Shown here: piece by piece, positions 11,914 through 53,925 of the stretch
Numbering within the stretch: position 1 is the stretch's first letter
How the letters are laid out: each line of letters opens with the position of its first letter
Assembly: GCA_000438075.1 (NCBI GenBank)
Contig: FR903540.1
Span: 14,086-78,085 of the forward strand
Length of the DNA stretch: 64,000 bases
Direction of reading: 5' to 3'
Source of the DNA: Clostridium sp. CAG:609
GTDB taxonomy: Bacteria; Bacillota_I; Bacilli_A; RF39; UBA660
Position numbers and translations under genes: made by a program
The notes under the pieces: model-generated
Seen by the model: the letters and a program-made list of their open reading frames with translations, nothing else
What the model was told of the DNA's origin: nothing
Database searches by the model: none

Positions 11914-12049
11914 TTGATTTGCTCCAGATAATGCAGTAAAATTGATATTAAGTGGAGAAAATATGACAAAAATAACTAGAAATTAGTCAAAAAACCTTGA
12001 TTTTCTCCAAATAATGCAGTAAAATTGATATTAAGTGGAGGAAATATGA
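11914..12049. repeat. two direct 53-bp repeats (11914-11966 and 11997-12049, 3 mismatches), each carrying promoter-like hexamers, an RBS and an ATG
   Basis: TTGATTT(G/T)CTCCA(G/A)ATAATGCAGTAAAATTGATATTAAGTGGAG(A/G)AAATATGA occurs twice with an 83-bp period. Confidence 0.85.
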
Positions 12050-12648
12050 TAGTAACAGATAAGATGCTTAAAGAAAAGTATCATAATTATGTAAATGTTT
12101 ATAGTAAAATAAATAGTGAAATTAAAAAGGGAAATTTAATTAGAGTAGTTCGAGGAATATATGAAACTAATCCGAATGTATCTAATTATTTGCTTGCATC
12201 AAGTGTTTGTAGTCCTTCTTATATATCGTTTGATTTTGCTTTGTATTTATATGGGCTTATTCCTGAAAGAGCTGTTAATTGTACAAGTGCAACTTATGAT
12301 AAGAGAAAGAAAAAGGTATATCATACGTCTTTTGGTGATTATATTTTCTATGATGTACCTAAGAATGTTTATCAATACGGTATTAAAATTATGGAAGAAG
12401 GGGAATATGGTTTTTGGATTGCTACTCCAGAGAAGGCTTTATGTGATAAGTTATATACTTTATCCCCGTTAAAAAATTTACACGAGATGGAAGTTATGAT
12501 ATTTGATGATTTAAGAATATATGAAGATGAGTTATATAAGTTTGATATGAATCTTTTAAAGGAGATTGAAGAAAATTATCATTCAACTAATGTAACATTG
12601 TTTTATAAATTTATGAGGAGGTTAAAAGATGAACAAGACACTAAGTGA
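12046..12648 (+). CDS. abiEi: AbiEi-family antitoxin / transcriptional regulator (type IV TA)
   Basis: Start at the ATG after RBS GGAGG (track ORF starts at 12025). N-terminal ...GNLIRVVRGIYE... and 20-nt overlap with the AbiEii gene. Confidence 0.8.
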   Translation: MIVTDKMLKEKYHNYVNVYSKINSEIKKGNLIRVVRGIYETNPNVSNYLLASSVCSPSYISFDFALYLYGLIPERAVNCTSATYDKRKKKVYHTSFGDYIFYDVPKNVYQYGIKIMEEGEYGFWIATPEKALCDKLYTLSPLKNLHEMEVMIFDDLRIYEDELYKFDMNLLKEIEENYHSTNVTLFYKFMRRLKDEQDTK

Positions 12649-13498
12649 AATGTTAGAAAAATATGAAATTAAAACCGATAAGGATGAAATTAATGCACTA
12701 AAAGAAATTATTCAAGAACTAGTTATAAGTGGATTATCAAAGAGTGATTTTTTTAATCGAGCTGCTTTTTATGGCGGAACTGCACTTAGAATATTTTATG
12801 ATTTGGATAGATTTTCTGAAGATTTGGATTTTGCTTTAGTAAGCCCAGATAAAAATTTTGATTTAAGTGCTTACTTTCCATTTATAGAAAAAGAAGTTTC
12901 TTTATATGGGTTAAATTTAAAGGTTGATACAAAGATTAAAACTAAAGAATCTAATATATCATCTGCTTTTTTAAAAGGCGATACTATGGAACATATTTTA
13001 ATTTTCTTTAGTGAAAGCAATTTGCAAAATAATTCTAAATTACTTAGGGATATTAAAATTAAATTTGAAATTGATATTAATCCACCGAGTGGTGCGGAAT
13101 ATGAAATAAAATATAAATTATTGCCAACGCCTCATTCAGTAAGACTTTATAATAAGGAATCTTTATTTGCTGGTAAGATTCATGCTATATTATGTAGAAA
13201 TTGGTCCCATAGAACTAAAGGAAGAGATTTATATGATTATGCATTTTTCTTATCAAAGAATATTAAAGTTAATATGAATCTTGTAAAATCTAAACTGGTT
13301 GAGTCTAATGTTTTAAAAGATGATGATAACTTTGATATAAATATTTTAAAAAATATGTTAAATGAAAAGTTTAAATTAATAGATTATGATGCTGCTAAAA
13401 ATGATGTTGCACCGTTTTTAGATGATTCAACTAAATTGAATATTTGGTCAATGGAATTCTTTCAATCTATTACTGATAACTTACATGAGGAACAATAA
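12629..13498 (+). CDS. abiEii: AbiEii/AbiGii-family nucleotidyltransferase toxin
   Basis: 289 aa; FYGGTALRIFY...RFSEDLDF NTase signature typical of AbiEii. Confidence 0.85.
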   Translation: MNKTLSEMLEKYEIKTDKDEINALKEIIQELVISGLSKSDFFNRAAFYGGTALRIFYDLDRFSEDLDFALVSPDKNFDLSAYFPFIEKEVSLYGLNLKVDTKIKTKESNISSAFLKGDTMEHILIFFSESNLQNNSKLLRDIKIKFEIDINPPSGAEYEIKYKLLPTPHSVRLYNKESLFAGKIHAILCRNWSHRTKGRDLYDYAFFLSKNIKVNMNLVKSKLVESNVLKDDDNFDINILKNMLNEKFKLIDYDAAKNDVAPFLDDSTKLNIWSMEFFQSITDNLHEEQ

Positions 13499-13734
13499 AC
13501 TAAAATAGGACTCTTTTTTGTGGTCTTATTTGTTTGGAAAGTTTCTGTAAAATCATGCAAATTATTGTTAAAATAGTGCTTTTTTGTCAAAATTTAGTCA
13601 ATAATTTAAAAAAAATAAAAAAAATTAATAGAAATTGTTAATTTCTTATTGATTTTATGGGGTTTTTTTGATAATCTTAATATGTAAGGCTAGTGGCTTT
13701 ACAAAATATTTTAGATAATGGGAGGTAAAGAAAT

Positions 13735-39482: not shown

Positions 39483-40658
39483 ATGAAAGGTAATTTACAA
39501 GAAATATTTGAAAAAGAAAATCTAATTGTACCAGATTATAATAAATTAAATTTGGTTAATTTAGTACGTACTTTATATAATAGATATGATGCTAATTATG
39601 AAATAGATAAAAATATGAAGTATATTGATAAGTTAATACCAAAGAGTAAGCATACATTGTTTATTTTAATTGATGGAATGGGTAGTAATTTGGTTGCATC
39701 ACTTGATGATGAGACAATAATAAAGAAAAATAAAATATGTGATATGTTAACTGTTAGTCCAAGTACTACTGGATGTGTTTTAACTTCTTTAGCAACTGGA
39801 GAATATCCGAATAAACATGGTATTATTGGTTGGTATAGTCATAATAGAGAAAACAATATTGATTATTATCCATTGTTATTTGCAGATAGAAAAAATGAAA
39901 AAAGCTTAGAGTGTTATGGTATTAAATCATCTGATATATTTAAATGTGAATCTATGTTAAATAAGTTAAAAAGGGTGTTATATCCAAAATATATTTGTGA
40001 TAGTATTTATTCTAAGTTTGTTGCAGATGATTCAAAAAGAATTGGTTATGATGATTATGATGAAGTATCAATGATTATAAAAAAAATAACTAATAGTAAT
40101 GAAGATACATTTACTTATCTTTATATACCTAATATAGATAATTTGGAACATGAAAATGGCGTTTATTCGGATATAGTTAAGGATGAAATGGGTAAGATTA
40201 ATAATATGTTAAATAGTTTATCTGATATAAATGATTTAACTATTGTTATTACTGCAGATCATGGTCAAATTAATATAGACCATGATGTAATTATGGATTT
40301 TTCAAAGTATAAAAATTACTTTTATGGATTACCGGGTATTGATTTTGCTACAGCTATATATTATGTAAAGAGTGAAATGAAAGAAAGTTTTGAGTACGTA
40401 TTTAATAAAGATTTTAAAGATAGAATGTATTTATTTAAAACCGAAGAATTTTTAGAAAATAATATATTTGGTTTAGGTGATGCATCAAGTTATTTTAAAA
40501 TTAATATGGGTGAATATGTAAGCATTTGTAAAAATGGTTATTGTTTTATAAATTCAGAAAATACATATGAGTATCTAGGGACTATTTTAGGCAATCACTC
40601 TGGATTTAGTAAAGATGAAATGTTTATACCTTTAGTAGTTATTAATAATAAAAAGTAA
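39483..40658 (+). CDS. alkaline-phosphatase-superfamily protein (nucleotide pyrophosphatase/phosphodiesterase-like)
   Basis: LIDGMG...SPSTTGCVLTSLATGEYPNKHGI...ITADHGQ, metal-ligand and nucleophile blocks of the AP superfamily. Confidence 0.75.
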   Translation: MKGNLQEIFEKENLIVPDYNKLNLVNLVRTLYNRYDANYEIDKNMKYIDKLIPKSKHTLFILIDGMGSNLVASLDDETIIKKNKICDMLTVSPSTTGCVLTSLATGEYPNKHGIIGWYSHNRENNIDYYPLLFADRKNEKSLECYGIKSSDIFKCESMLNKLKRVLYPKYICDSIYSKFVADDSKRIGYDDYDEVSMIIKKITNSNEDTFTYLYIPNIDNLEHENGVYSDIVKDEMGKINNMLNSLSDINDLTIVITADHGQINIDHDVIMDFSKYKNYFYGLPGIDFATAIYYVKSEMKESFEYVFNKDFKDRMYLFKTEEFLENNIFGLGDASSYFKINMGEYVSICKNGYCFINSENTYEYLGTILGNHSGFSKDEMFIPLVVINNKK

Positions 40659-40664
40659 AGAACG

Positions 40665-40919
40665 TTATTTATTCTTTACTTTTTCTATTTTTATTGTGTA
40701 ACCAATTGGTCCAAGTATTTTAAGTAGACTTAATATTGATGGGGAAGATGTACCACATTCAATTCTAGCTATTTTTTCTCTAGATACTCCGGAATACTTG
40801 GAAAATAAATCTTGTGTTAAGTTATTTTCTTTTCTAAAACTTATGAATTCTTTTATAAATATTTCATTTAATTCTTCTGGGTTATAAGCTACTTCAATAT
40901 AATTTTTATCATAATCCAT
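40665..40919 (-). CDS. XRE-family helix-turn-helix regulator
   Basis: 84 aa; LTQDLFSKYSGVSREKIARIECG HTH; divergent from the adenylate-forming enzyme gene. Confidence 0.8.
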   Translation of the reverse strand: MDYDKNYIEVAYNPEELNEIFIKEFISFRKENNLTQDLFSKYSGVSREKIARIECGTSSPSILSLLKILGPIGYTIKIEKVKNK

Positions 40920-41022: not shown

Positions 41023-42741
41023 ATGGAAAAATTTTATGATTATTATACGAAAGAAATCAAAGAAGATTCATTACCTGTTGGAAATGAATATGACTTTCTA
41101 CTTGAAAGAAACAAAAATTATATGAATAATGTTGCATTATCTTTTGATGCAAAAAAAATCACTTATGAAGAATTACATGAAAGAATCGATGAATTTGCTC
41201 GTGCACTATACAAAAGAGGTATAAGAAAGGGTACTTGTGTTGGTGCTGTTTTAGTTAATACACCAGAATCTGTATATTTATTGTATGCATTAAAAAAACT
41301 TGAAGCTCAAGTAGTGGGGCTTAGTCCTTTGAATAATGAATACAAAATGCAAAGAGATATTGAAATGACTAAACCTGAATTTATTATTTCTGTTGATATG
41401 ATGTATGGAAATTTTAAAAATCCTGCTAGGAATTTAAATATTACTCCAATACTTTATTCTCCGCTTGAGTCATTAAATAAAAATGGTTTGAAATTTCTTT
41501 ATAATGCTAAACAATTTGTATCTGGAAATAAGATACTTAAAAAGAGTAGTAATTTAATGAATATTGTTAAAGATGGGAAAGATTTTGATGGAGTGGAATA
41601 TCCTGAACATGTTAAAGGAAGTACTACAGATATTATGTTTACTGGTGGTTCTAGTGGTATTCATAAAGGTGTTGATTTAGATGGCGGTGCTTTAAATAGT
41701 GTTGTTAAAGCATTAGATTATGTTTTAGTATTAGAACCTGGTATGGTTCATTTAGGAAATATTCCTTTTGGCCATATGTGTTTTGGTAGATTAGTTCTTC
41801 ATTACTGTTTATGTAAAAATTTGGAATATGCATTAACTTTAAAAGCTATGCCTGAAGATTTTTATAGTGAACTTGTTAGAACTCATGCTAATGGTGCTAT
41901 GGGAGGTCCTGTTCATTGGGAAATTTTAAGTCAAGATAAAAATTTAAAACCTTGGACATTACATAATTTAATTCAACCTTTATCTGGAGGAGAAATGTTT
42001 AAGCCTCAAAAATTAATTGAAGCTAATAAAGCATTAGAATATGCTGGATGTATAACTCCAATTGGAAATGGTTTAGGTTTAACTGAAATGTGGGCACCTA
42101 CTCATGTATGTATTGGAGGCAAAAATACTTCTGGTACTATAGGTTATCCAATTCCATTTGTTAATTCTAAAATTGTAGATCCTAAGACTTTTGAAGATTT
42201 ACCTATTGAAACTCCAGGTGTATTACTTGTTAATGGTCCTGGAATGATGCTTAGATATCATGAAAACGAAGAAGAAACAAATGCTGTATTAGTATATGAT
42301 GAAAATGGTGTTAAATGGTATAATACAAAAGATGTTGCTGTTAAACATGAAAATGGTGAATATGAATTTATTGGTCGTCTTAAGAGAAATTTTGTTTCTG
42401 GTGTAGATAATATTTATCCAGAACAAATTGAACAATTACTTCTTCAAATACCTGAAATTAGAGAAGTTTTAGTTACATCAATACCTGATGATAAAGAACA
42501 ATTCTTACCTAGTTATCATGTTAGTTTAAATGATTTTAATTGTGATAGAAAAGTATTAGAAAATAAAATATTTACATTAATTCAAAATACTTTAGGTACT
42601 AGTGCACTTCCTGGTTATATTGAATATTATGAAAATGCTTTACCAAGAACTGATAATGGTAAGTTAGATCCTAAGGCTATGGAAGAAAAAGATAAAGAAA
42701 GAATTGAAAATAATAATTTAGTTAGAACTAGAGTTAGATAA
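41023..42741 (+). CDS. ANL-superfamily adenylate-forming enzyme (acyl-CoA synthetase-like)
   Basis: 572 aa; TGGSSGIHKG (AMP-binding P-loop variant), GLGLTE, ...TKD...G...GR.K and terminal ...TDNGK(L). Confidence 0.85.
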   Translation: MEKFYDYYTKEIKEDSLPVGNEYDFLLERNKNYMNNVALSFDAKKITYEELHERIDEFARALYKRGIRKGTCVGAVLVNTPESVYLLYALKKLEAQVVGLSPLNNEYKMQRDIEMTKPEFIISVDMMYGNFKNPARNLNITPILYSPLESLNKNGLKFLYNAKQFVSGNKILKKSSNLMNIVKDGKDFDGVEYPEHVKGSTTDIMFTGGSSGIHKGVDLDGGALNSVVKALDYVLVLEPGMVHLGNIPFGHMCFGRLVLHYCLCKNLEYALTLKAMPEDFYSELVRTHANGAMGGPVHWEILSQDKNLKPWTLHNLIQPLSGGEMFKPQKLIEANKALEYAGCITPIGNGLGLTEMWAPTHVCIGGKNTSGTIGYPIPFVNSKIVDPKTFEDLPIETPGVLLVNGPGMMLRYHENEEETNAVLVYDENGVKWYNTKDVAVKHENGEYEFIGRLKRNFVSGVDNIYPEQIEQLLLQIPEIREVLVTSIPDDKEQFLPSYHVSLNDFNCDRKVLENKIFTLIQNTLGTSALPGYIEYYENALPRTDNGKLDPKAMEEKDKERIENNNLVRTRVR

Positions 42742-42973: not shown

Positions 42974-44259
42974 TAAATGTGCCATTTTACCCATTCGATA
43001 ATAATAAATAATCTACGCCTAGGCTTTGTTATTTATTATTATCTTTATTGAATAAACTAGGTTTAAGTATGATATCTTCGGGTGAGATAAAGTAGAAACC
43101 TAGTTTTTTTATGTTTTCTTCTCTTATGTTTTCCTTCATTAGATTGTATGGTGTATTACCATTTAATTTTTCTCTTTTAGTATTATTAATATGATTCATC
43201 ATTAAATAAATATCTTCTTTAGAATACTTATCTAAATCAGTACCTTGTTCAATATATCTTCTTATATATTCATGTGTTACTTCAATACTTCCTTTTTGGT
43301 CATTTCTTCTAGAATCACAGAAAAACACTTTAGTTTTAACCACATCCGGACCATTATCTTCGATTAAGTCAGGGCTTTTAAATTCTTTACCGTTGTCAGT
43401 TAATATAACTGGAAATATTTTGTGAAATGTTTCATATCCAAGTATTGCTTTAATTTCATTTATTTTTTGAGTAACCTCAGATATTGTTTGGCTTTCTAAT
43501 TTACAAACAATCATAAAATTAAAAGGTATACAGTTTAAAGTTAGTAAAACAGAGTGTCCTTTTATACTCTCAACAGTATCCATTTCTACATAATACTTAA
43601 TATTGTTAGCCATCTTATAGTTAAGAAAGTCTTGATATGTACGATTGATTCTGCATTCATTTTCTTTTTTTTCACTCTTATTTTTAGATACTTTTCTTTT
43701 TCTTTTGCGATATCTAACAATTCTAGGTAAATCAATATTTTTACAAGATAAATAACCTTTTTCTTGGTAGTAATATAAAGTTCTTTCGGTAATATTAAAT
43801 TCTGGATGATCTGTTACAATCATATAGAATGAATGCCCTTTATCAATTTCTTCTTTGATAATTTTATCCATTTTTCTAAATTCGTCATTTTCAAAATCAA
43901 TACCTTGTCTAGATTCAACTAAAGTTTTATGGTAGTCGTTGTTAGCATTTTCTGCATAATAAAAATAATGATTTTTTTTACACTTATTTTTATTGGGACA
44001 ACCATTATAGACGAATGGAGCTTTCTCAGTTTTATTACATTTTACATTAAAATTATTAAATTGATTTCCTTTAATCAAAATTCTTCTTGATAATATTTCT
44101 ATAGAAATAGTTGTATGAGGTTTACCAATAATTTCACCAATTTTTCTTAGACTATTATTCTCATCAAGATTGCTTTCTATAATTATTCTTTGACTCAAAT
44201 TTAAATGTTTTTCCATTTTAAAAATCTTCTTTCATATAAATGGGTAAAACTGCGATTTA
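42974..44259 (-). mobile_element. IS30-family insertion sequence (~1.29 kb); ends approximate
   Basis: Imperfect terminal inverted repeats TAAATGTGCCATTTTACCCATT (42974-42995) and the reverse complement of 44239-44259 (TAAATCGCAGTTTTACCCATT) flank the transposase gene. Confidence 0.6.
43029..44216 (-). CDS. IS30-family DDE transposase
   Basis: 395 aa; N-terminal HTH (SLRKIGEIIGKPHTTIS); DDE candidates in VEMDTVE, LTDNGKEF, EVTHEYIRRY. Confidence 0.9.
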   Translation of the reverse strand: MEKHLNLSQRIIIESNLDENNSLRKIGEIIGKPHTTISIEILSRRILIKGNQFNNFNVKCNKTEKAPFVYNGCPNKNKCKKNHYFYYAENANNDYHKTLVESRQGIDFENDEFRKMDKIIKEEIDKGHSFYMIVTDHPEFNITERTLYYYQEKGYLSCKNIDLPRIVRYRKRKRKVSKNKSEKKENECRINRTYQDFLNYKMANNIKYYVEMDTVESIKGHSVLLTLNCIPFNFMIVCKLESQTISEVTQKINEIKAILGYETFHKIFPVILTDNGKEFKSPDLIEDNGPDVVKTKVFFCDSRRNDQKGSIEVTHEYIRRYIEQGTDLDKYSKEDIYLMMNHINNTKREKLNGNTPYNLMKENIREENIKKLGFYFISPEDIILKPSLFNKDNNK

Positions 44260-44382
44260 TATTATATAATTTTTTACTAAAATTTCAAGTGTGATAATTG
44301 AAATACTAAATACTCCAGTATTAATTATTGCGGTTCATTTAAAATTTCATTTGAATTTTATCATTTTTTACTTAAAGGGTAC

Positions 44383-44410
44383 TTGACAACTATAAAATTT
44401 ATGGTAGAAT
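44383..44410 (+). promoter_or_regulatory. putative promoter upstream of the rel leader
   Basis: TTGACA (44383-44388), 16-nt spacer, TG-extended TAGAAT (44405-44410). Confidence 0.45.
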
Positions 44411-44441
44411 TAGTATTAAATTATTTTTAAAGGAGAAAGCT

Positions 44442-44564
44442 ATGGAATTAGTAAAAGATTATAATATTGTTACTAAATTAAAAAATAAAAAAAGACACTT
44501 TAATAGTGTGTTTTGTTCATGCTTTCATTGTGTTAAAAATATTGGGTTTAAAGCCGGTCAATAG
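44442..44564 (+). CDS. 40-aa leader ORF (MELVKDYNIVTKLKNKKRHFNSVFCSCFHCVKNIGFKAGQ), speculative
   Basis: RBS AAAGGAG lies 6 nt upstream. The stop sits inside the following terminator hairpin. Confidence 0.3.
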   Translation: MELVKDYNIVTKLKNKKRHFNSVFCSCFHCVKNIGFKAGQ

Positions 44565-44592
44565 AAACATTATGTTTTTGTGACCGGTTTTT
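44554..44592 (+). terminator. terminator/attenuator hairpin directly upstream of the rel RBS
   Basis: Outer stem CCGGTCA/TGACCGG with inner AAACAT/ATGTTT pairing, followed by TTTTT. The rel RBS GGGGAGGAG lies 6 nt further on. Confidence 0.5.
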
Positions 44593-44607
44593 GTTTGGGG
44601 AGGAGTT

Positions 44608-46047
44608 ATGAATTTAGAAGATTTAATTGACTTAGTATCATCATATGATAAAGATAGTGTTGATATTATTGAAAAAGCTTATTATTATGCAGAAAATTTA
44701 CATGATGGTCAATTTAGACAAAGTGGGGAAGCTTATATTAGTCATCCACTTAATGTAGCATATATATTAGCACAAATGCATGCTGATTGCGATACTATTT
44801 GTGCTGGACTTTTACACGATACATTAGAAGATACTAATATTACAAAAGAAGATATATCACATGAATTTAATCAAAGTATTGCTTTATTAGTTGATGGAGT
44901 AACAAAATTATCTAAAATGAATTTTTCATCTAAGCAAGATCAAAATTTTGCTAATACTAGAAAAATAATTACTGGTATTACTGAAGATGTAAGAATTATA
45001 ATTATTAAACTTGCTGATAGACTTCATAATATGAGAACATTGGAGTTTAAATCAGAATTTAAACAAAAAGAGAATGCCTTAGAGACAATGGAAATATTTG
45101 TACCTCTTGCATATTATATTGGAGCTTATAGAATAAAATCAGAGTTAGAAGATCTGTCACTAAAATATTTGAAGCCTGATCAATATAAAGATTTAGAGAA
45201 TAGAAAATTAAAAATTGAAGAAGATTGTAAAGATTGTTTATATGAAATGTATTATAAAATAAAGTCAATTTTAAATGAAAAAAACATTCCAAATGAGATG
45301 AAAATAAGAACTAAAAATATTTATGGAATTTATAAAAAGATTTTATTAGGTCAAAAGATATGTGATATTCATGATTTACTTGCTTTGAAAATAATGGTAT
45401 CTGAAATAAATGAATGTTATTACGCTTTAGGTCTTATTCATAAAGAGTATCATCCGATTAATGATAAATTTAAAGATTATATTTGTAATCCTAAGACAAA
45501 TATGTATCAAAGTTTACATACTACTGTTTTTGGCCCGAATGATAAAATTGTTCAAACACAAATTAGAACATTTGATATGGATAAAGTTGATTCTTTTGGA
45601 TTAACTGCTTATTGGGATATCAAAAGAGGGAATGCAAGATTTGATATGCAAGATGATTTAAAGAAAAAGTATCAATTTTTTAAGTCATTAGTGGAAATAA
45701 ATTCTATGTTTGGGGATAATCAAGAATTTGTTTCACAAGTAAAGCATGAGATATTCTCTGATAAGGTTTATGTATATACGCCGAAAGGAGATATTATAGA
45801 ATTACCTAAAGGTTCAACACCAATAGATTTTGCTTATAAAATACATACTGATGTTGGAAATACTATGGTATATGCTGTGGTTAATGATGAATTTGTATCA
45901 GTGGATTATGTACTTAAAAATAAAGATAGAGTACGAATTATTACTGATAGTTTATCATTTGGACCTAGAAAGGAGTGGTTAGATGTAGCAAAGACAAGTT
46001 TAGCAAAAAAAAGAATAAAAGAGTTTGGGAAGGAAGGAAAATATTAG
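44608..46047 (+). CDS. rel: RelA/SpoT-homolog (p)ppGpp synthetase/hydrolase ending just after the TGS domain
   Basis: 479 aa. HD hydrolase (HPLNVA...LLHDTLEDT), synthetase (RTKNIYGIYKK, YQSLHTTV) and TGS (VYVYTPKGDIIELPKGSTPIDFAYKIH). No ZFD or ACT/RRM region. Confidence 0.85.
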   Translation: MNLEDLIDLVSSYDKDSVDIIEKAYYYAENLHDGQFRQSGEAYISHPLNVAYILAQMHADCDTICAGLLHDTLEDTNITKEDISHEFNQSIALLVDGVTKLSKMNFSSKQDQNFANTRKIITGITEDVRIIIIKLADRLHNMRTLEFKSEFKQKENALETMEIFVPLAYYIGAYRIKSELEDLSLKYLKPDQYKDLENRKLKIEEDCKDCLYEMYYKIKSILNEKNIPNEMKIRTKNIYGIYKKILLGQKICDIHDLLALKIMVSEINECYYALGLIHKEYHPINDKFKDYICNPKTNMYQSLHTTVFGPNDKIVQTQIRTFDMDKVDSFGLTAYWDIKRGNARFDMQDDLKKKYQFFKSLVEINSMFGDNQEFVSQVKHEIFSDKVYVYTPKGDIIELPKGSTPIDFAYKIHTDVGNTMVYAVVNDEFVSVDYVLKNKDRVRIITDSLSFGPRKEWLDVAKTSLAKKRIKEFGKEGKY

Positions 46048-46051
46048 TATA

Positions 46052-47176
46052 ATGATTAAAAATAAAATATATGAAAGTGTTAAAAACAACAATTTAATTA
46101 TAAAAATAACTAATGATGAATATGTTCAAATTAATTTATTAATTAATAAATTGAAACATGAATATAATCTACAATTAGATTATATTCAAAAAAACAAAAA
46201 AAATTTTGATAAAATTTTATTACATAATCAATTAGTAAAAACAACAATTAAAGAAGTTATTGATCATTTTAGCGTAATAAAAAAATATAATGTTTGTGTT
46301 TTTGTTACTGGTAGTTTTGCAAGATGCACTAATAAGTTTAATAGTGATTTAGATTTGCATTTTTGCTATAAAAATATTTATAAAAATATTTTGTTTAAAT
46401 ATGAAGAAATGATATATTATATTTTATTTTCAATATTTAATATTAATAGAGAAAAAGTCCATAATATGATATTGTCTAGATATGAAAATAAAAAAATAGT
46501 TCGAATTATGTCTATTGTTGATAATAATGATTTGATGATTATTTTAAAAAATGATGATAATGAAATTTCTTATAAAATAAATGGTAAACAAAAAAGAAGA
46601 ATATATTCTCAATATCTTAATAAGAAAGATATTAAAACAATGTATAAATATTTAAGAAATGAATTGTTAACTTATAATAGGGAATGGGTGCATACTTTTT
46701 ATGTTTTCTCTAATGATTGGTTATTTACAAAATATTATAAGAAATTATTAATTATTGAAGATAAAAATAAGAGCATAGACAAAATTAATAAAAGAAAAGA
46801 AGATATAGTAACACAAATTGAATTTATAAATAGTATGATTAATACAATTGATAAAGAGAATATATGTGATTTTAAAAAAATGTTTCAAATGGAAGAATTT
46901 AAGTTATTATATAATTATATATCATATAGACGAGATTTATATTTATTATATAATAAAAAATGGGATATGATAGATTTTTCTAATATTGATAACTATTTAA
47001 ATAATGATATTGTTTTCCCTTATATAAAGGATTATATGTATTCATTATTTAATTTAGTAGAGTCTTTTAAAAATGAATATAGTATTCATAAAAGCGGTTA
47101 TATAAATAAGGAATGTTATGATTTACAAATTATTAAATTATTAAGATTAAACAGTTTAATAGGAGGTGTTTTATGA
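46052..47176 (+). CDS. Pol-beta-superfamily nucleotidyltransferase-like protein
   Basis: 374 aa from ATG 46052 (track start 46025). NTase signature VFVTGSFARCTNKFNSDLDLHF (GS-x9-11-DxD). The rest is helical and Asn/Lys/Ile-rich. Confidence 0.6.
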   Translation: MIKNKIYESVKNNNLIIKITNDEYVQINLLINKLKHEYNLQLDYIQKNKKNFDKILLHNQLVKTTIKEVIDHFSVIKKYNVCVFVTGSFARCTNKFNSDLDLHFCYKNIYKNILFKYEEMIYYILFSIFNINREKVHNMILSRYENKKIVRIMSIVDNNDLMIILKNDDNEISYKINGKQKRRIYSQYLNKKDIKTMYKYLRNELLTYNREWVHTFYVFSNDWLFTKYYKKLLIIEDKNKSIDKINKRKEDIVTQIEFINSMINTIDKENICDFKKMFQMEEFKLLYNYISYRRDLYLLYNKKWDMIDFSNIDNYLNNDIVFPYIKDYMYSLFNLVESFKNEYSIHKSGYINKECYDLQIIKLLRLNSLIGGVL

Positions 47177-48234
47177 ATAAGATGGTTATAACTTTACCAA
47201 TTGCACCTTATAAAAATTTTTCTATAGGAAAATTAAGTACTCCTATATTAGCAGAAGCTTTGGCAAAAAAAATTGATGGCAAGTTTTATCTTGCAGTAAA
47301 TTTACTAGATTCTTATAAAGAAAGAAATATTGATGGTTATAAAGAATTATTAGATATGTATGGAATTACTCCTGATGAATTTTGGATAGACAAAGAACAT
47401 ATAAATGATTTGCTTGATTCTATTTATTTTTTAATACAGAATGGTTATATTTACAAAATTAAAAAAGATATGTTATTGTGTAATTGTAAAAAAGTTGAGA
47501 TAGCTAAAGATAATATTTCGTCGATTAATATGATTGATTCATGTTTTCAAATAATTGATGGAGAGTATTATTGTAAGAGTTGTAAAAAAAGGTGTTATAT
47601 ATATGAAAAAGAAGTGCTTGTTCTTGATGCAAGAGCTGTTTATAAGGAAAATATGTTGTTTTTCCCTGATTTTATTAATAAAGATGTGAAAACATTTCAT
47701 AATAATATTGGCATAAATCAAGTAGTTATTAGTCGAGAAAGAAATACTGGTATAAATGTGATATATAATAATAAAAAATATAATATAGATATTGATTTTT
47801 TGTGGGAAATATATTTGTCATTATTTTCTAAAAGTGATAAAATAGTATTATGTTCTAATCATCAATTATTTCAACTCTATATGGTTTTGATGTTGGAAAA
47901 TTGTTTTAATAAAGAGTCAAAGACAATTGGTCTTGCAACCCCTTATATAAATGTTGAAAATTTTGGTATAGAAAAAGAATTAGAAAATAGAATGTTATCA
48001 TTAAAACTTTTTACGTTATTTAATTTTAAATGGAGTAAAAAAGAAAATTCGATTGATATTGGACTATTAAAATATTTGAATAGTATGAATGTTGAAAAAA
48101 AACAACAATTATATCATTTGACAATTAAAGAGAATGCTAATAATTCTATAGAAAATATAAAAGATATATTAATTAAAGATTTTAATTTTCAGTATGCTAA
48201 TGCTGAATTAAAAAGAAGGAGAAAAAATGTATAG
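47173..48234 (+). CDS. degenerate class I aminoacyl-tRNA-synthetase-like catalytic core (MetRS-like), no anticodon-binding domain
   Basis: 353 aa. The order PIAPYKNFSIGKL (HIGH position) ... GITPDEF ... NGYIY ... CNC/CKSC knuckle ... FKWSKKENS (KMSKS position) mirrors MetRS. ATGA overlap with the upstream gene. Confidence 0.5.
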   Translation: MNKMVITLPIAPYKNFSIGKLSTPILAEALAKKIDGKFYLAVNLLDSYKERNIDGYKELLDMYGITPDEFWIDKEHINDLLDSIYFLIQNGYIYKIKKDMLLCNCKKVEIAKDNISSINMIDSCFQIIDGEYYCKSCKKRCYIYEKEVLVLDARAVYKENMLFFPDFINKDVKTFHNNIGINQVVISRERNTGINVIYNNKKYNIDIDFLWEIYLSLFSKSDKIVLCSNHQLFQLYMVLMLENCFNKESKTIGLATPYINVENFGIEKELENRMLSLKLFTLFNFKWSKKENSIDIGLLKYLNSMNVEKKQQLYHLTIKENANNSIENIKDILIKDFNFQYANAELKRRRKNV

Positions 48235-48895
48235 CATATTACTTTCAAAAATGGAAATTGGGTTTCCAATAGTTGAGAAAAGGTTAAAAAAAATTATTAA
48301 AAAAAATTCAAAAGTTATTATTATTCCTTGGAGTTTTCCAAATGAAACAGATAAAATTGGATTAAATGAGTATTATGATAAAAAGATTAAGCCAAAGTAT
48401 GAAAAAATATTAATTGATTTTGGAATTGATAAAAAAAATATTAAGTATTTAAATTGTTATAATAAAAATATTAAAATGATGAAAAAATATATAAATGAAT
48501 CTGATGTTTTAATTTTACCTGGAGGTAATCCTGAAATGTTTTTTTCTAAAATTGTACATGAAACTGAACTTCTTTATGTTATTAAACACTATAAAAAGAT
48601 TATAATTGGTGTGTCTGCAGGAGCGTGCCTCCATTTTAAAAGATATTTTATAACAGCTAAAAATAATTATTACAATTATTTTGCATTTTACGATGGTTTT
48701 GGCATTTTAAATAATTCGTTTCTTATTGATGTTCATTCATCTAATAATAAACTGTATTTTAATAAACTAAGAAATATATCTAAAGAATATATGAAAGATG
48801 TTTATGCAATATATAATGATGGTGCTATCATTGTTAATAGAAAAAATAATAATATAGAAATGTTTGGAAATGTTTTAAAGATAGATAATAAATAA
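48227..48895 (+). CDS. peptidase S51 (PepE/cyanophycinase-like) family protein
   Basis: 222 aa; VLILPGGNPEMF and IIGVSAGACL (GxSAG nucleophile elbow), later IDVHS; colinear with E. coli PepE; 8-nt overlap with the upstream gene. Confidence 0.7.
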   Translation: MYSILLSKMEIGFPIVEKRLKKIIKKNSKVIIIPWSFPNETDKIGLNEYYDKKIKPKYEKILIDFGIDKKNIKYLNCYNKNIKMMKKYINESDVLILPGGNPEMFFSKIVHETELLYVIKHYKKIIIGVSAGACLHFKRYFITAKNNYYNYFAFYDGFGILNNSFLIDVHSSNNKLYFNKLRNISKEYMKDVYAIYNDGAIIVNRKNNNIEMFGNVLKIDNK

Positions 48896-49030
48896 TAAAA
48901 TGTTTTGTGAAATTAAATAAATTAATTAATATATATATAATTAATAAAATTTGTCTTAAAATATTTTAAATGTTTGTTCAAAAAAATTTTTATTATATGG
49001 TGTGTAACAATGGATGGAACAAATTGTTTT

Positions 49031-50196
49031 AAATGACTAAACCTTAATTTATAATTTCTGTAGATATGATGTATGGCAATTTAAAAAAGCTAGCAGAAGC
49101 ATTAAATGTTACACCGATTATTTATTCTCCATTAGAATCTATTAGTAATAATGGGTTAAAATTTTTATATAATACTAAGCAATTTTTTGCTGGTAATAAA
49201 TTACTAAAAAAAGAAAATAATTTAATGAATATTGTTAAAGATGGGAAAGATTTTAATGATGTAGAATATCCTGAACATGTTAAAGGAAGTACTACTGATA
49301 TTATGTTTACTGGTGGTTCTAGTGGTATTCATAAAGGTGTTGAACTTGATGGGGGAGCATTAAATAGTGTAGTTAAAGCATTAGATTATGTTTTGATATT
49401 AGAACCTGGTATGGTTCATTTAGGAAATATTCCTTTTGGTCATATGTGTTTTGGTAGATTAGTTCTTCATTATTGTTTATGTAAAAATTTGGAATATGCA
49501 TTAACTTTAAAAGCTATGCCTAAAGATTTTTATAGTGAACTTGTTATAACTCATGCTAATGGTGCTATGGGAGGCAAAAATACTCCTGGTACTGTAGGTT
49601 ATCCAATTCCATTTGTTAATTCTAAAATTGTAGATTCTAAGACTTTTAAAGAATTGCCTATAGAAACACCTGGTGTATTACTTGTTAATGGTCCTGGAAT
49701 GATGCTTAGATATCATGAAAATGAAGAAGAAACAAATGCTGTATTTGTATATGATGAAAATGGTGTTAAATGGTATAATACAATGGATGTTGCTGTTAAA
49801 CATGAAAATGGTGAATATGAATTTATTGGTCGTCTTAAGAGAAATTTTGTTTCTGGTGTAGATAATATTTATCCAGAACAAATTGAACAATTACTTCTTC
49901 AAATACCTGAAATTAGAGAAGTTTTAGTTACATCAATACCTGATGATAAAGAACAATTCTTACCTAGTTATCATGTTAGTTTAAATGATTTTGATTGTAA
50001 TAAGACTGTTTTAGAAAATAAAATATTTACATTAATTCAAAATACTTTAGGTACTAGTGCACTTCCTGGTTATATTGAATATTATGAAAATGCTTTACCA
50101 AGAACTGATAATGGTAAGTTAGATCCTAAGGCTATGGAAGAAAAAGATAAAGAAAGAATTGAAAATAATAATTTAGTTAGAACTAGAGTTAGATAA
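49031..50196 (+). pseudogene. truncated, internally deleted copy of the 41023-42741 adenylate-forming enzyme gene
   Basis: Homology starts at the equivalent of codon ~114 and contains a stop (CCTTAATTT vs CCTGAATTT). An in-frame 213-nt deletion removes the GLGLTE block. The 3' end and terminator match copy 1. Confidence 0.85.
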
Positions 50197-50277
50197 GCTG
50201 CTTAATAGTAGCTTTTCTTTTGCTTGAAAAAAGAGTGTATTTGTGATATTATTAAGTTAGAATTGGAAGTGGTAGAC

Positions 50278-52107
50278 ATGGGATTTTATTTCTCAATTAG
50301 TGCATTAATTATTATTTTATTATTTACTTATAATTTTTTGGCTAAAGAAAGGGTAAATAATATTGAAACTAAGATATACAAATATTTATTATTTTTAACT
50401 ATATTTGGGTTATCTATGGATATTACTACTTGTATTTTATTTAAAGCTGGTGTAGATATAAATAGCTTTTGGTATTCAATGGGTTCAAAGTTAGTATTTG
50501 CTTATTTTGTTTTATGGTTACTACTTTTTGCTTATTATATTAAATGTATTAGTTTACCAAATCGTGGTAATTATAAAAGTAAAATGATGAGCACGTTTTA
50601 TTATTTTGTATTGTGTTTAGCTTTTATTGTTCCTTTTATAATAATTTTACCTGTTAATTTTAAATTGGAGGGAGATGTTATAATTCCAAATGGAATTCCT
50701 GTTTTTATTACTTATATTGTTTCTTTTTTACTTATTTTATATTCTGTTTATATTGCTATAAGATATCGCAAGAATATTGAGGGAAAAAAATTAAGACCTT
50801 TATATATTTTCTGTATTTTAATGCTCTTAAATTTCATTATACAAAGTTTATTCCCTTCGGCTTTTTTAATTAATTATTTATTGTCTTTAGTTGTAGTTAT
50901 AATGTATTTTACCATAGAAAATCCAGATGTAAAAATGATTCAACAATTGAATGCTGCAAAAGATGCTGCAGAGAAAGCTAATCAAGCAAAGACTGATTTT
51001 TTATCTAGTATGTCACATGAGATTAGAACACCTTTAAACGCTATAGTAGGGTTTAGTAATTTACTTTTAGATGATAAAAATTTACCTGATAGTGCTAATG
51101 ATGAAGTTAATGATATAGTGATGGCTTCGGATAATTTGCTTGAAATAGTTAATGGTATTTTGGATATATCGAAGATTGAAGCAGGTAAACTTGAAATTAT
51201 TAATACTGAATATGAAGTTAATAAGGTAATTAAAGAGTTAGTTTCTTTAACAAAAGGAAGACTCGGTGTTAAACCAATTGAACTTATTACTAAGTTTGAT
51301 AAATCTATTCCACCGGTATTATATGGGGATGCAGCAAGATTAAAACAAATATGTGTAAATATTTTAACTAATGCTGTTAAATATACAAAAGAAGGAAGTA
51401 TAACATTTACAATAAATAGTATTGTTAAAAATGGAATATGTAGATTAATTATTGCAGTTGAAGATACGGGTATTGGCATAAAACAAGAAAATATTGGTAA
51501 GTTATTTAATAAATTTGAAAGATTAGATTTAGAAGATAATGTAACAATAGAAGGTACTGGTTTAGGTCTTGCTATTACAAAGAGATTAGTTGATTTAATG
51601 AATGGTAATATTGTGGTACAAAGTGTATTTGGAAAAGGTTCTAAGTTTACAGTATCTATTGACCAAAGAATTGTGGAACATCCAACGATAAAGCTTGAAG
51701 AACAAGAGACATATGATAAAGTGAAAGTAAAAGATAAATTAGTTTTAGTTGTTGATGATAATAAGATTAACTTAAAAGTTGCAGAAAGATTACTTGAAAC
51801 ATATGGAGTTAAAACAGAATGTGTTGAAAGTGGATTTATTTGTATAGATAACTTGAAAAATGGTAAAAAATATGATTTAATATTAATGGATGATATGATG
51901 CCAAGAATGAGTGGGGTTGAAACATTAAAGAAAATTAAATCAGAGATTAAAGATTTTAATATACCAGTGATTGCTTTAACTGCGAATGCACTTACGGGTA
52001 TGAAAGAAAAATATATTAATGATGGTTTTGATGATTATTTAGCTAAACCAATTAATAAAGATCAATTAAATAGAGTAATTAATGAATATTTAAACACGGA
52101 GGGATAA
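50278..52107 (+). CDS. hybrid sensor histidine kinase/response regulator (multi-TM sensor)
   Basis: About 6 N-terminal TM helices; H-box [11 protein letters not shown]; G-boxes DTGIGI and GTGLGLAI; C-terminal receiver (VVDDN...[11 protein letters not shown]...K). Confidence 0.9.
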
Positions 52108-52109
52108 AA

Positions 52110-52886
52110 ATGAAAGATGTAAATATTTTAATTAATAATGGTGCTAATGTTAAAAAAGCTTTAGAATTATTTGGAGATATGGAAACATATGATGCAACGC
52201 TAGAAACATTTTTACAAGAAGTACCTAGTAAGCTTGAAAAAATTAGAGCTTTAAAAGAAATTGGAGATATGGCTAATTATGCTATTTTAGTTCATTCATT
52301 AAAAAGTGATGCAAGATACTTTGGTTTTGAAGAACTTGGTGAAATAGCATATCAGCATGAATTAAAAAGTAAAGAAAATGATATGTATTATGTAACTGAA
52401 CATTTTGATGAATTAATGGCTGAAGCAAATAGAGTTGTTAATGTTGTTAAAAAATATATGGGTGTTGGAGGTGTTGTAGATACACCAGAAGTTAAACACA
52501 CAAATGGTAAAAAAATATTAGTAGTAGATGACTCAAATATTATTAGAAATTTTATATTAAAAATATTAGATGATTCATTTGAAGTAATAAGTGCTAATGA
52601 TGGCAAAGAAGCTATTGATATATTAGATGATGAAAGAAAAAGAAATGATATTAAAGCAGTATTACTTGATTTAAATATGCCAAATGTTAATGGCTTTGAA
52701 GTATTAGATTTTTATAAAAATAAAGATTTATTTAGAAGTATACCTATTTCAATTATAACTGGGGTAGATGATAAAGAATCAATTAATAAAGCTTTTAAAT
52801 ATCCGATTGTTGATATATTACTTAAACCATTTAATGAAAGAGATGTAAAAAGAATACTTGAAAAAACTATAAACAGTAACATTTAA
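52110..52886 (+). CDS. Hpt-domain + receiver-domain phosphorelay protein
   Basis: Hpt signature LVHSLKSDARYFG, then a receiver (VVDDS...LLDLNMPNVNG...LKP). Confidence 0.85.
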   Translation: MKDVNILINNGANVKKALELFGDMETYDATLETFLQEVPSKLEKIRALKEIGDMANYAILVHSLKSDARYFGFEELGEIAYQHELKSKENDMYYVTEHFDELMAEANRVVNVVKKYMGVGGVVDTPEVKHTNGKKILVVDDSNIIRNFILKILDDSFEVISANDGKEAIDILDDERKRNDIKAVLLDLNMPNVNGFEVLDFYKNKDLFRSIPISIITGVDDKESINKAFKYPIVDILLKPFNERDVKRILEKTINSNI

Positions 52887-52900
52887 AAAAGAAGTGTTGA

Positions 52901-53821
52901 TTACTTCTTTTTTCGTTTTAATAAAGCTAGTGATTCTTCATTTGCAAATATTCTATCTTGCATACGATGAAGATTAAAACTTATCCATTCATTCCATGCT
53001 TCATTATTAGGATTTAAGGCAATACTAGCAAGTAGTTCACGGTATTCTTTTCGATATGGAATATAATTTTTAGAAAAATATATTGCTGGTAGAGGTAATT
53101 CAAATAAATTATTAGATATTGTTTTATTTGTTAAGTCTTGAAGTGTTATATGTTGAAAACATCTAGCAAGTCTAGTGTTACCATCTTCGAATACTTGTAA
53201 TACAGCGATTAAACCATGCATAATAAATGGTTTTATAAATAATTCTTCTTCATCTTTTATTGGTGTATTAAAATATTTACATAATAGAAGTGTTGATTCT
53301 TTGATATCATCATAAGATATTGGAAAATAATATATTACTGGTTTATTATCTTCAATATAGCCAACATAATGATGATTGTTTGTTCTAAAACCTTCATTTA
53401 TCGTATTTCCATTACTTGTTCCACGCATTAATATTTCGTGAGCTTTTTTTATTATTGCATCATTTAATGGTGTATTTTCTTTTAAAAGTTTACGCACTAA
53501 ATATCTGATTACAGTAGAGTGGTGTGTTTCATTATAGATTCTTAAAAAGTTTACATTTTCTCTTTCTAATACATGATTATCAATTATTTCTGAATTCATC
53601 AAAGCTTTAAGTATTGATTCTTGGGTTTCTTTACTATACTTTAATATGTCTTCGATGTATTCTATATATAATTCTTTAGTGAAATTCATTAACTTTTCAA
53701 TATCACTTCTTAGTTTTAAATCATCAATATAGTCGAATAATCTAACATCGACGATTTTTTCACGTGCTTCTTTTAAATCTTTTACTTGGAAATATTCTAG
53801 GTCTTCCTTGGTATATGACAT
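52901..53821 (-). CDS. Fic-fold protein with degenerate active-site motif
   Basis: 306 aa from the ATG after RBS AGGGGGAG (track ORF extends to 53902). Core ...HGLIAVLQVFEDGNTRLARCF... aligns with HPFx(D/E)GN(G/K)R, with Gln in place of the catalytic His. Confidence 0.75.
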   Translation of the reverse strand: MSYTKEDLEYFQVKDLKEAREKIVDVRLFDYIDDLKLRSDIEKLMNFTKELYIEYIEDILKYSKETQESILKALMNSEIIDNHVLERENVNFLRIYNETHHSTVIRYLVRKLLKENTPLNDAIIKKAHEILMRGTSNGNTINEGFRTNNHHYVGYIEDNKPVIYYFPISYDDIKESTLLLCKYFNTPIKDEEELFIKPFIMHGLIAVLQVFEDGNTRLARCFQHITLQDLTNKTISNNLFELPLPAIYFSKNYIPYRKEYRELLASIALNPNNEAWNEWISFNLHRMQDRIFANEESLALLKRKKK

Positions 53822-53896
53822 ATAAATCTCCCCCTTTAAATTGGTTATTATTTTAGCACTATTTCTCCGTTTTGTCAACTTTATTAAAACATAAAT

Positions 53897-53925
53897 TTGC
53901 ATTTTTCTTTTAAATGTGGTATAAT
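53897..53925 (+). promoter_or_regulatory. putative promoter of the J-domain operon (a divergent Fic promoter is also present)
   Basis: TTGCAT (53897-53902), 17-nt spacer, TG-extended TATAAT (53920-53925). On the minus strand TTGACA-17-TAAAAT lies at ~53844-53872. Confidence 0.5.

Follow-up and report, generated by a model that had tools for sequence, protein, structure and literature searches.

Descendants of aminoacyl-tRNA synthetases that work outside translation have time and again revealed new chemistry, as in MshC, GluQRS, the cyclodipeptide synthases, the hydrazine synthetases, HisZ and GCN2. Three of these, HisZ, the HisRS-like domain of GCN2 and the cyclodipeptide synthases, keep a synthetase fold without the ATP motifs and the anticodon domain, and each depends on an obligate enzyme partner; the first two derive from class II histidyl-tRNA synthetase (HisRS) and the last from the class Ic tyrosyl-/tryptophanyl-tRNA synthetases (Tyr/TrpRS). 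The hydrazine synthetases (PyrN, Spb40 and Tri28) combine a cupin with a domain derived from methionyl-tRNA synthetase (MetRS), which carries one or more zinc knuckles and, acting on aminoacyl-adenylates without tRNA, passes the acyl group to an acceptor other than tRNA (bioRxiv 10.1101/2025.08.22.671884). The subject of this report is a three-gene module in a 64,000-nucleotide stretch of Clostridium sp. CAG:609 (contig FR903540.1, positions 14,086 to 78,085), hereafter the window. The middle gene encodes a relic of MetRS, hereafter X, and lies between the genes for a Pol-beta nucleotidyltransferase (NTase), hereafter NT, and a serine hydrolase of family S51, hereafter S51. Together with the rel gene that precedes them, they are laid out as follows.

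44608-46047, plus strand: rel, 479 aa, the first gene of the operon in the lineage of the window
46052-47176, plus strand: NT, 374 aa from an ATG (gene callers instead start it at a TTG at 46025)
47173-48234, plus strand: X, 353 aa
48227-48895, plus strand: S51, 222 aa, identical to CDF20508.1 (Clostridium sp. CAG:609)

An earlier note, made from the sequence alone, had placed three translationally coupled open reading frames (ORFs) at these plus-strand coordinates, and ORF calling agrees. The ATGA overlap of NT with X and the 8-nt overlap of X with S51 also stand, but the gap between the rel stop codon, which ends at 46047, and the ATG of NT measures 4 nt and not 5. The coordinates given below for the motifs GSFARCTNKFNSDLDL, SIGK, CNC...CKSC, GGN and GVSAG were all checked by translation.

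Searches with X, as a single sequence and as a 26-sequence profile, returned no sequence match in Pfam, NCBIfam, PADLOC or the PDB. An AlphaFold model was built from the 26-sequence alignment (predicted local distance difference test, pLDDT, 91.3; predicted template-modelling score, pTM, 0.88) and compared with the PDB by Foldseek. Forty-eight of its top 50 matches were MetRS, with E values down to 1.1e-12 and a template-modelling (TM) score, TMq, of 0.63, and the remaining two were the MetRS-like domain of PyrN. A first HHalign comparison, of the 26-sequence profile with one MetRS, aligned the connective-peptide (CP) region alone (E 0.0016). When a profile of the 158-member X family was compared with four MetRS sequences from PDB alignments, residues 4-341 of X were aligned with residues 7-404 of E. 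coli MetRS at a probability of 98.4% (E 8e-14). Since the sequence searches gave nothing meaningful, the kinship of X with MetRS, at an identity of about 13%, is visible only by structure comparison and profile-profile alignment, both of which bear out the MetRS-like catalytic core that the earlier note had proposed. The elements of X that bear on its function are the following.

47221-47232, plus strand: SIGK, at the position of HIGH (H21-H24 of E. coli MetRS)
47479-47583, plus strand: four-Cys zinc knuckle CNC...CKSC (C103, C105, C134, C137), in the connective-peptide insertion
47728-47805, plus strand: pocket motifs ISRxRxTG and DIDFLW, conserved in the X family
48028-48042, plus strand: KWSKK (residues 286-290), aligned with 'AKLSSR' of E. 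coli MetRS, about 25 residues downstream of the KMSKS loop

X shares with MetRS the Rossmann fold, the CP insertion, the four-Cys knuckle, the order of the elements and the ISR motif. The knuckle, which is single in X, lies at the CP position that had been predicted for it, according to both alignment and translation, and its cysteines are 98-99% conserved family-wide. By contrast, the class I signatures are gone. At the position of HIGH, only G19 is conserved (79% of 107 family representatives), and none of these representatives has His-x-Gly-His. At the KMSKS site, HHalign leaves an 11-residue gap, and because the last Rossmann strand (258-260) is only 3 residues away from the next helix (264-270), the loop has been deleted. 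The reading of both signatures as degenerate is therefore right for HIGH, which is replaced, but wrong for KWSKK: its alignment downstream of the deleted loop and the lack of conservation of its lysines in the wider X family (W287 is fairly conserved, at 74%) rule it out as a remnant of KMSKS. The anticodon-binding domain is missing, as expected, since X ends with residue 353 at about residue 404 of the E. coli enzyme, before the helix bundle; its C-terminal tail is basic (ELKRRRKNV), a character that is conserved. X fails HIGH, KMSKS and anticodon binding, and is therefore a descendant of MetRS, not a member. Because it has neither ATP signature element, canonical amino-acid activation by X is unlikely.

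A set of polar residues has nevertheless been kept. The residues that are near-invariant among the 107 distant representatives are P9, N43, D73, C103, C105, C134, C137, P165, S187, R190, D206, D208, W211 and P257. In the HHalign alignment, S187 and R188 of X fall on S232 and R233 of E. coli MetRS; R233 reportedly stabilizes the methionyl-adenylate transition state, a finding attributed to Ghosh and colleagues in 1991. D206 (100%), D208 (95%) and W211 (89%) belong to DIDFLW, whose DxD is new with respect to MetRS, standing in place of W253 and D255 of the E. coli enzyme, and C227-S228-N229 align with G294-K295-D296, the class I ribose-binding G-x-D. X is thus a MetRS relic devoid of the triphosphate-handling elements but with a conserved, enzyme-like polar pocket that includes the invariant DxD.

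How does X compare with the described descendants of synthetases? The MetRS-like domain PyrN-C (9l8v) is matched by the X model at an E value of 1e-9. The hydrazine synthetases, however, keep HLGH, KFSTG, the helix bundle and ATP use (bioRxiv 10.1101/2025.08.22.671884), none of which X has, and the hosts of X are not secondary-metabolite producers. No cupin is encoded in the window, and Cupin_2 is absent from most X loci, occurring only in two distant ones, L038 and L040, where it directly follows X. The absence of a cupin and of the ATP motifs rules out X as a hydrazine synthetase. HisZ, the GCN2 domain and the cyclodipeptide synthases resemble X in what they have lost but differ in their ancestry, in having neither a Pol-beta NTase nor an S51 partner, and in that X keeps its invariant polar pocket. 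MetRS itself differs from X in the same respect as to gene context, since NTase and serine hydrolase genes stand alongside X in most loci.

The first of these partners carries a minimal NTase signature, as the earlier note had it.

46310-46357, plus strand: NTase catalytic signature GSFARCTNKFNSDLDL (hG[GS]...DxD), supported by conservation and by the translation check

Residues G87, S88, D99 and D101 of this signature are invariant in the NT family alignment. The match to Pfam NTP_transf_2 is weak and below threshold (E 0.004), and Pfam GlnE gives no match to NT. The AlphaFold model of NT (pLDDT 92.8) shows a Pol-beta core in a large helical domain, with an N-terminal helical hairpin that is specific to NT. 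The best full-length Foldseek matches, and the only ones with E < 1e-3, are the adenylylation domain of GlnE (3k7d, E 6.6e-4) and the AMPylation domain of Legionella DrrA/SidM (6yx5, E 8.8e-4); the scores are moderate, with low TM scores (0.44-0.50) and identities of 10-11%. MNT antitoxins, aminoglycoside NTases and terminal uridylyltransferases (TUTases) match NT over the core only. The CD-NTase fold is absent from the top 50 hits, and a fold search of the viral database BFVD gave nothing significant. Judging by the modelled fold and the invariant motif, NT is a Pol-beta nucleotidyltransferase with intact catalytic residues.

The third protein had been described as a PepE-like S51 peptidase with GGN and GxSAG, and this identification also stands.

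48521-48529, plus strand: GGN (GGNPEM), conserved
48608-48622, plus strand: GVSAG, the nucleophile elbow (S130), conserved

S51 matches Pfam PF03575 (Peptidase_S51) above the cut-off (39.1 bits vs 23.9, E 8.6e-10). G128, S130, A131, G132 and D168 are invariant, and V169 and H170 are conserved to at least 90% (18-28 sequences); for the third residue of the triad, D198-G199 is a candidate. PepE, cyanophycinase and MccG share with S51 the GGN, the GxSAG elbow and the conserved His, but the protein of the trio belongs to a divergent clade with a motif of its own, RYFITAKNNYY, and is encoded beside X. Its closest solved relative is the uncharacterized Lmo0363 of Listeria (3l4e, E 1.3e-5), PepE being matched at E 0.01. 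The sequence thus points to a bona fide yet divergent member of the S51 family, which is also the best conserved protein of the trio, with identities of 45-59% where those of X are 31-60%.

At 90% identity the X family falls into 61 clusters, and at 50% identity, with E <= 1e-3, it numbers 345; a further homologue search from distant members returned 9 proteins. Nearly all members are 340-390 aa long and, where a database name is given, it is 'hypothetical protein'. Gene neighbourhoods were compared in 59 X loci from species-representative genomes and metagenomes, the metagenomes being scanned with an alignment of a 6-sequence X subgroup; the set includes redundancy, the same genome having sometimes been recovered twice. 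All 59 loci are low in GC (0.21-0.36), and the named hosts are metagenome-assembled genomes (MAGs) of uncultured Bacilli, Erysipelotrichaceae and 'Mycoplasma sp. CAG:776' from human, rabbit and rumen-type samples. Four loci (L010, L011, L014 and L030) come from MAGs labelled 'uncultured Muribaculaceae', where the trio sits on low-GC contigs and is close to its Bacilli relatives, which probably points to wrong binning or labelling of these contigs.

Of the 59 loci, 48 have NT and 48 have S51 within a few genes of X; 44 have the two together, and contig ends cut 9 of the 15 exceptions to the full trio. The gene order is permuted (NT-X-S51, X-S51-NT, X-NT) and fusions occur, of X with the Pol-beta domain (P0160) and of S51 with X (P0172). 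This co-occurrence supports the functional linkage that had been postulated for the three genes. A distant branch has, after X, genes for a serine hydrolase of the alpha/beta fold and for a protein of 250 aa that bears the NTase signature HGS...DIDL. The association of a MetRS relic, an NTase and a serine hydrolase thus survives the swap of the hydrolase for a non-homologous one, which argues strongly that the three share one function. X is covered by no Pfam, NCBIfam or PADLOC model, and no paper was found in the literature on the trio or on any system made of an aaRS-like protein, an NTase and S51, in keeping with the earlier note, whose author knew of no such system. Since no library, database name or paper covers it, I rate the module as a new kind of system in its gene architecture, though it could prove to be a variant of aminoacyl-nucleotide detoxification.

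The reading that I tentatively favour, with more doubt than confidence, is that NT, X and S51 form a complex that turns over a conjugate of an amino acid (or an aspartyl-type acyl group) with an adenosine nucleotide. The folds, the intact catalytic residues of NT and S51, the loss of the ATP motifs from X and the linkage of the genes are shown by the analysis; complex formation, substrate class and the order of the steps are what I infer. NT, the sole NTP-using core enzyme, would transfer NMP, probably AMP, onto a hydroxyl-type acceptor. X would bind both the amino-acid and the adenosine moiety, its DxD/SR pocket may catalyse acyl or nucleotidyl transfer, and the serine hydrolase would cleave the acyl group or transfer it. 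S51 enzymes cleave Asp-X dipeptides. Those of the MccG type, clade V of the family, in which an Asp completes the triad, act on aspartamide-adenylate and -cytidylate by hydrolysing the carboxamide bond (PMC9239234). This chemistry strengthens the idea of an aminoacyl- or peptidyl-nucleotide function put forward by the earlier note, which by analogy is plausible, and the tRNA-independent action of the MetRS-like domain of the hydrazine synthetases offers a further parallel.

Several points weigh against this proposal. The residues of X were mapped onto MetRS by a global profile alignment, whose certainty for any one residue is low, and not by coordinates. The usual targets of Pol-beta NTases are hydroxyls on RNA, proteins or antibiotics, and none of these enzymes is known to work alongside a synthetase-like protein. 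The matches of NT to protein AMPylases would suit a protein target no less well. The basic character of all three proteins (pI 9.3 for NT, 8.6 for X and 9.6 for S51), together with the conserved basic tail of X, fits an RNA substrate equally. Finally, the accessory genes of the module, described below, are lineage-variable and none is universal. A bolder version of the proposal is a 'split' enzyme, in which the ATP chemistry of a class I synthetase has been handed to NT: NT and X would together form an aminoacyl-adenylate or ester on a non-tRNA or tRNA-end acceptor, S51 would edit or transfer the acyl group, and the whole would be tied to the C-terminally truncated Rel as an amino-acid or charging sensor. 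X would then stand for a new class of synthetase descendant. I consider this version improbable.

The AMPylases, the only significant fold matches of NT, lead to another reading, in which X is a dead pseudo-synthetase that senses an amino acid or uncharged tRNA and controls NT, itself an AMPylase of a protein, possibly Rel or S51. There are precedents, for HisZ senses for HisG and the HisRS-like domain for GCN2. The loss of HIGH and KMSKS from X and the occurrence of X-NT fusions would fit, as would a Rel that here lacks its own C-terminal regulatory half. A mere sensor, however, does not call for the active-site-like invariant polar residues of X (N43, D73, S187, R190, D206 and D208); it leaves S51, the best-conserved member, without an obvious role, although a hydrolase is kept even after the fold swap, and it does not explain the phosphatase, Nudix and phosphoribosyltransferase accessories. 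Such a sensor is rather unlikely.

The chemistry of MccG also bears on an explanation in terms of resistance to aminoacyl-nucleotide antibiotics, processed compounds of the microcin C type or other synthetase inhibitors, with X as a decoy that captures the adenylate mimic, S51 as the cleaving enzyme and NT as an O-nucleotidylating enzyme like ANT/Lnu. Microcin producers are plentiful in the gut. NT has weak fold matches to the aminoglycoside NTases AAD(9)/AadA, and a gene of the Cfr/RlmN family lies within the operon in three loci. The MccG-type S51 enzymes detoxify aspartamide-nucleotides, and many of their genes are stand-alone and chromosomal (PMC9239234). Against this, the module is inherited vertically in single copy, with co-diverging partners and no plasmid or phage copies, which is atypical of resistance genes; S51 belongs to a divergent clade nearest by sequence to the uncharacterized Lmo0363, and a decoy needs no invariant catalytic-looking residues. 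Resistance as the role of the module therefore seems improbable to me.

The accessory genes that lie in the module or are fused to it handle nucleotides or phosphoesters, which speaks for the proposed turnover of a nucleotide conjugate. A Cof-type HAD-IIB phosphatase gene directly follows S51 in 7-9 loci, and such a domain is also fused to X (P0115). An orotate/adenine-phosphoribosyltransferase-like (PRTase-like) domain is fused to X in P0167 and L041, and Nudix paralogues flank the trio. The neighbours in L038 include, besides the Cupin_2 gene, a Pnkp/PSTK-like P-loop kinase (AAA_33) and a His_Phos phosphatase. In L042-L044, an N-terminally truncated RlmN-like radical-SAM gene lies between X and S51; its product (L042, 9068-9922) is 285 aa long, has no N-terminal RNA-binding part and matches TIGR00048 with E 6.5e-43, below the cut-off. 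The RlmN/Cfr family methylates adenine at C2 or C8.

The rel gene upstream of the trio encodes a protein with the domains HD_4, RelA_SpoT and TGS (TIGR00691, E 9e-158) but without the C-terminal half made of the helical, zinc-finger (ZFD) and RNA-recognition-motif (RRM) domains, which in long RelA/SpoT homologues normally binds the ribosome. The earlier note had called it a truncated Rel within a mobile-looking interval. This does not hold: 11 loci, whose X proteins range from about 30% to 100% identity, have a short Rel of 477-489 aa immediately before the trio; besides the window, these include L003-L007, L012, L042, L043 and L045. The short Rel is the normal form of the lineage, with no truncation by a mobile element. 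Since this form is conserved across the lineage, (p)ppGpp control must differ here. The typical Firmicutes synteny of rel is recJ-apt-relA; this arrangement is absent upstream of rel, where the genes differ among loci.

The proximity of Rel bears on the reading that comes next in probability, in which the module surveys or repairs the 3' ends of tRNA in connection with the stringent response. X would dock the CCA end of a (mis)acylated or damaged tRNA by means of the acceptor-end and amino-acid sites retained from MetRS, NT would add or repair 3' nucleotides, the hydrolase would remove the aminoacyl or blocked-aminoacyl group, and co-transcription with Rel would couple the module to the charging status of tRNA. 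In other Firmicutes, dtd follows relA. RNA 3' ends are the target of many Pol-beta NTases, and the direct adjacency of Rel in the 11 loci, the basic proteins and X tail, and accessories of an RNA type (the RlmN-like methylase, the Pnkp/PSTK-like kinase with His_Phos, Nudix and a nearby NYN RNase) are consistent with this reading. By contrast, X has no anticodon-binding domain, Rel is not adjacent to the trio in most loci, the fold of NT is closer to GlnE and DrrA than to CCA-adding enzymes or TUTases, and the PRTase and Cof-phosphatase fusions suggest small molecules. Moreover, ARAGORN and Rfam searches of the window and 10 loci found no tRNA, T-box or riboswitch as an RNA partner, nor a hidden precursor; the module has no tRNA or other RNA gene near it. 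I therefore regard a role in tRNA surveillance as unlikely, though less so than a sensor or a resistance system. An explanation not yet thought of takes the remaining probability.

For the proposed turnover of an amino acid-nucleotide conjugate, as for its rivals, what is at stake is considerable. The X family is sizeable and has neither model nor annotation, and its hosts are abundant uncultured Bacilli of the human and animal gut; in genomes as small as theirs, an operon of 3 kb that has been kept is probably of importance. The function, if solved, could prove to be a new amino-acid-nucleotide metabolite or signal, a new tRNA quality-control route or a new mechanism of resistance to synthetase-targeting antibiotics, and its solution would name hundreds of 'hypothetical proteins'. 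To specialists of synthetases, a MetRS relic devoid of ATP motifs with NTase and hydrolase partners would come as a surprise.

The earlier note had also envisaged a defence system or mobile cassette. In such a system, an anti-phage or toxin-antitoxin cassette, the NTase would generate a signal or act as a toxin. The tight translational coupling, the low GC, the IS30 neighbour and the frequency of Pol-beta NTases in defence and toxin-antitoxin systems speak for it. The trio is indeed the most AT-rich stretch of the window: the computed GC of 0.173 for NT, 0.224 for X and 0.208 for S51, vs 0.260 +/- 0.037 for 45 long ORFs of the window, confirms an impression that had been gained by eye. The recommended check of codon usage shows, however, that GC at third codon positions (GC3) is native (0.125-0.144 vs a window mean of 0.138). 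The deficit is confined to codon positions 1 and 2 and the proteins are rich in Lys, Asn, Ile and Tyr; the low GC therefore stems from amino-acid composition and not from foreign codon usage. Furthermore, PADLOC gave only noise on the trio (E 0.005-0.04), no relatives of it were found on plasmids or phages by megablast and tblastn or on viral contigs by a scan, and there is neither a HEPN partner nor a CD-NTase-like fold. Synteny with rel and the downstream housekeeping genes is kept in related species, as in L006, where the order is Rel-NT-X-S51-HTH-AMP ligase-histidine kinase-response regulator-Fic (HTH, helix-turn-helix). The defence hypothesis is thus largely refuted and very improbable. 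The operon Rel-NT-X-S51 is native to the chromosome in a clade of gut Bacilli that are uncultured, low in GC and small in genome.

The mobile look of the interval results from an IS30-like element and a duplication of the AMP-ligase gene, not from the trio. The neighbouring genes concerned are the following.

41023-42741: AMP-dependent ligase, first copy, adjoining the IS30-like transposase
43029-44216, minus strand: IS30-like transposase
49066-50196: AMP ligase, second copy, degraded, 85-95% identical, with a 213-nt internal deletion
50224-52107: hybrid histidine kinase, after the ligase remnant
52110-52886: Hpt/receiver protein
52901-53902, minus strand: Fic-domain protein, convergent

Comparison with L006 shows a duplication, associated with the insertion sequence (IS), that has put a copy of the HTH and AMP-ligase genes before rel. 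The block of histidine kinase, response regulator and Fic genes is syntenic in L004 and L006. Beyond the first ligase copy lies a gene (39483-40658) whose product belongs to the alkaline phosphatase superfamily and matches Phosphodiest and, weakly, PglZ; it is adjoined by a small HTH gene (40665-40919, minus strand).

Upstream of rel, the sequence suggests a control region with three elements.

44383-44410, plus strand: predicted sigma-70-like promoter, TTGACA-16-TAGAAT with TG, upstream of rel
44442-44564, plus strand: leader ORF of 40 aa, with its stop codon inside the 5' arm of the hairpin
44549-44596, plus strand: strong hairpin (to 44590) and U-run, between the promoter and the ribosome-binding site of rel

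The predicted promoter has 11 of 12 consensus matches and is the top plus-strand site within 44200-49200; it is probably the start of a rel-NT-X-S51 transcript. The 200-nt rel leader (region 44383-44607) has a folding energy of -47 kcal/mol (z -4.56) and matches nothing in Rfam; its hairpin may be an attenuator, ribosome-mediated or other.

Genes for genuine synthetases occur near X in several loci (IleRS in L046, LeuRS in L038, MetRS in L021, ProRS in L036 and AlaRS in L006), a distribution judged compatible with chance. In L021, a canonical metG 2.5 kb downstream of the trio (12029-13674) appears to be split by a frameshift into two overlapping ORFs (12029-12424 and 12415-13674), probably an assembly error. 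The AlaRS encoded upstream of rel in L006 (3435-5174) is 580 aa long, with tRNA-synt_2c and tRNA_SAD but without the C-Ala domain, and is another shortened translation factor of these reduced genomes.

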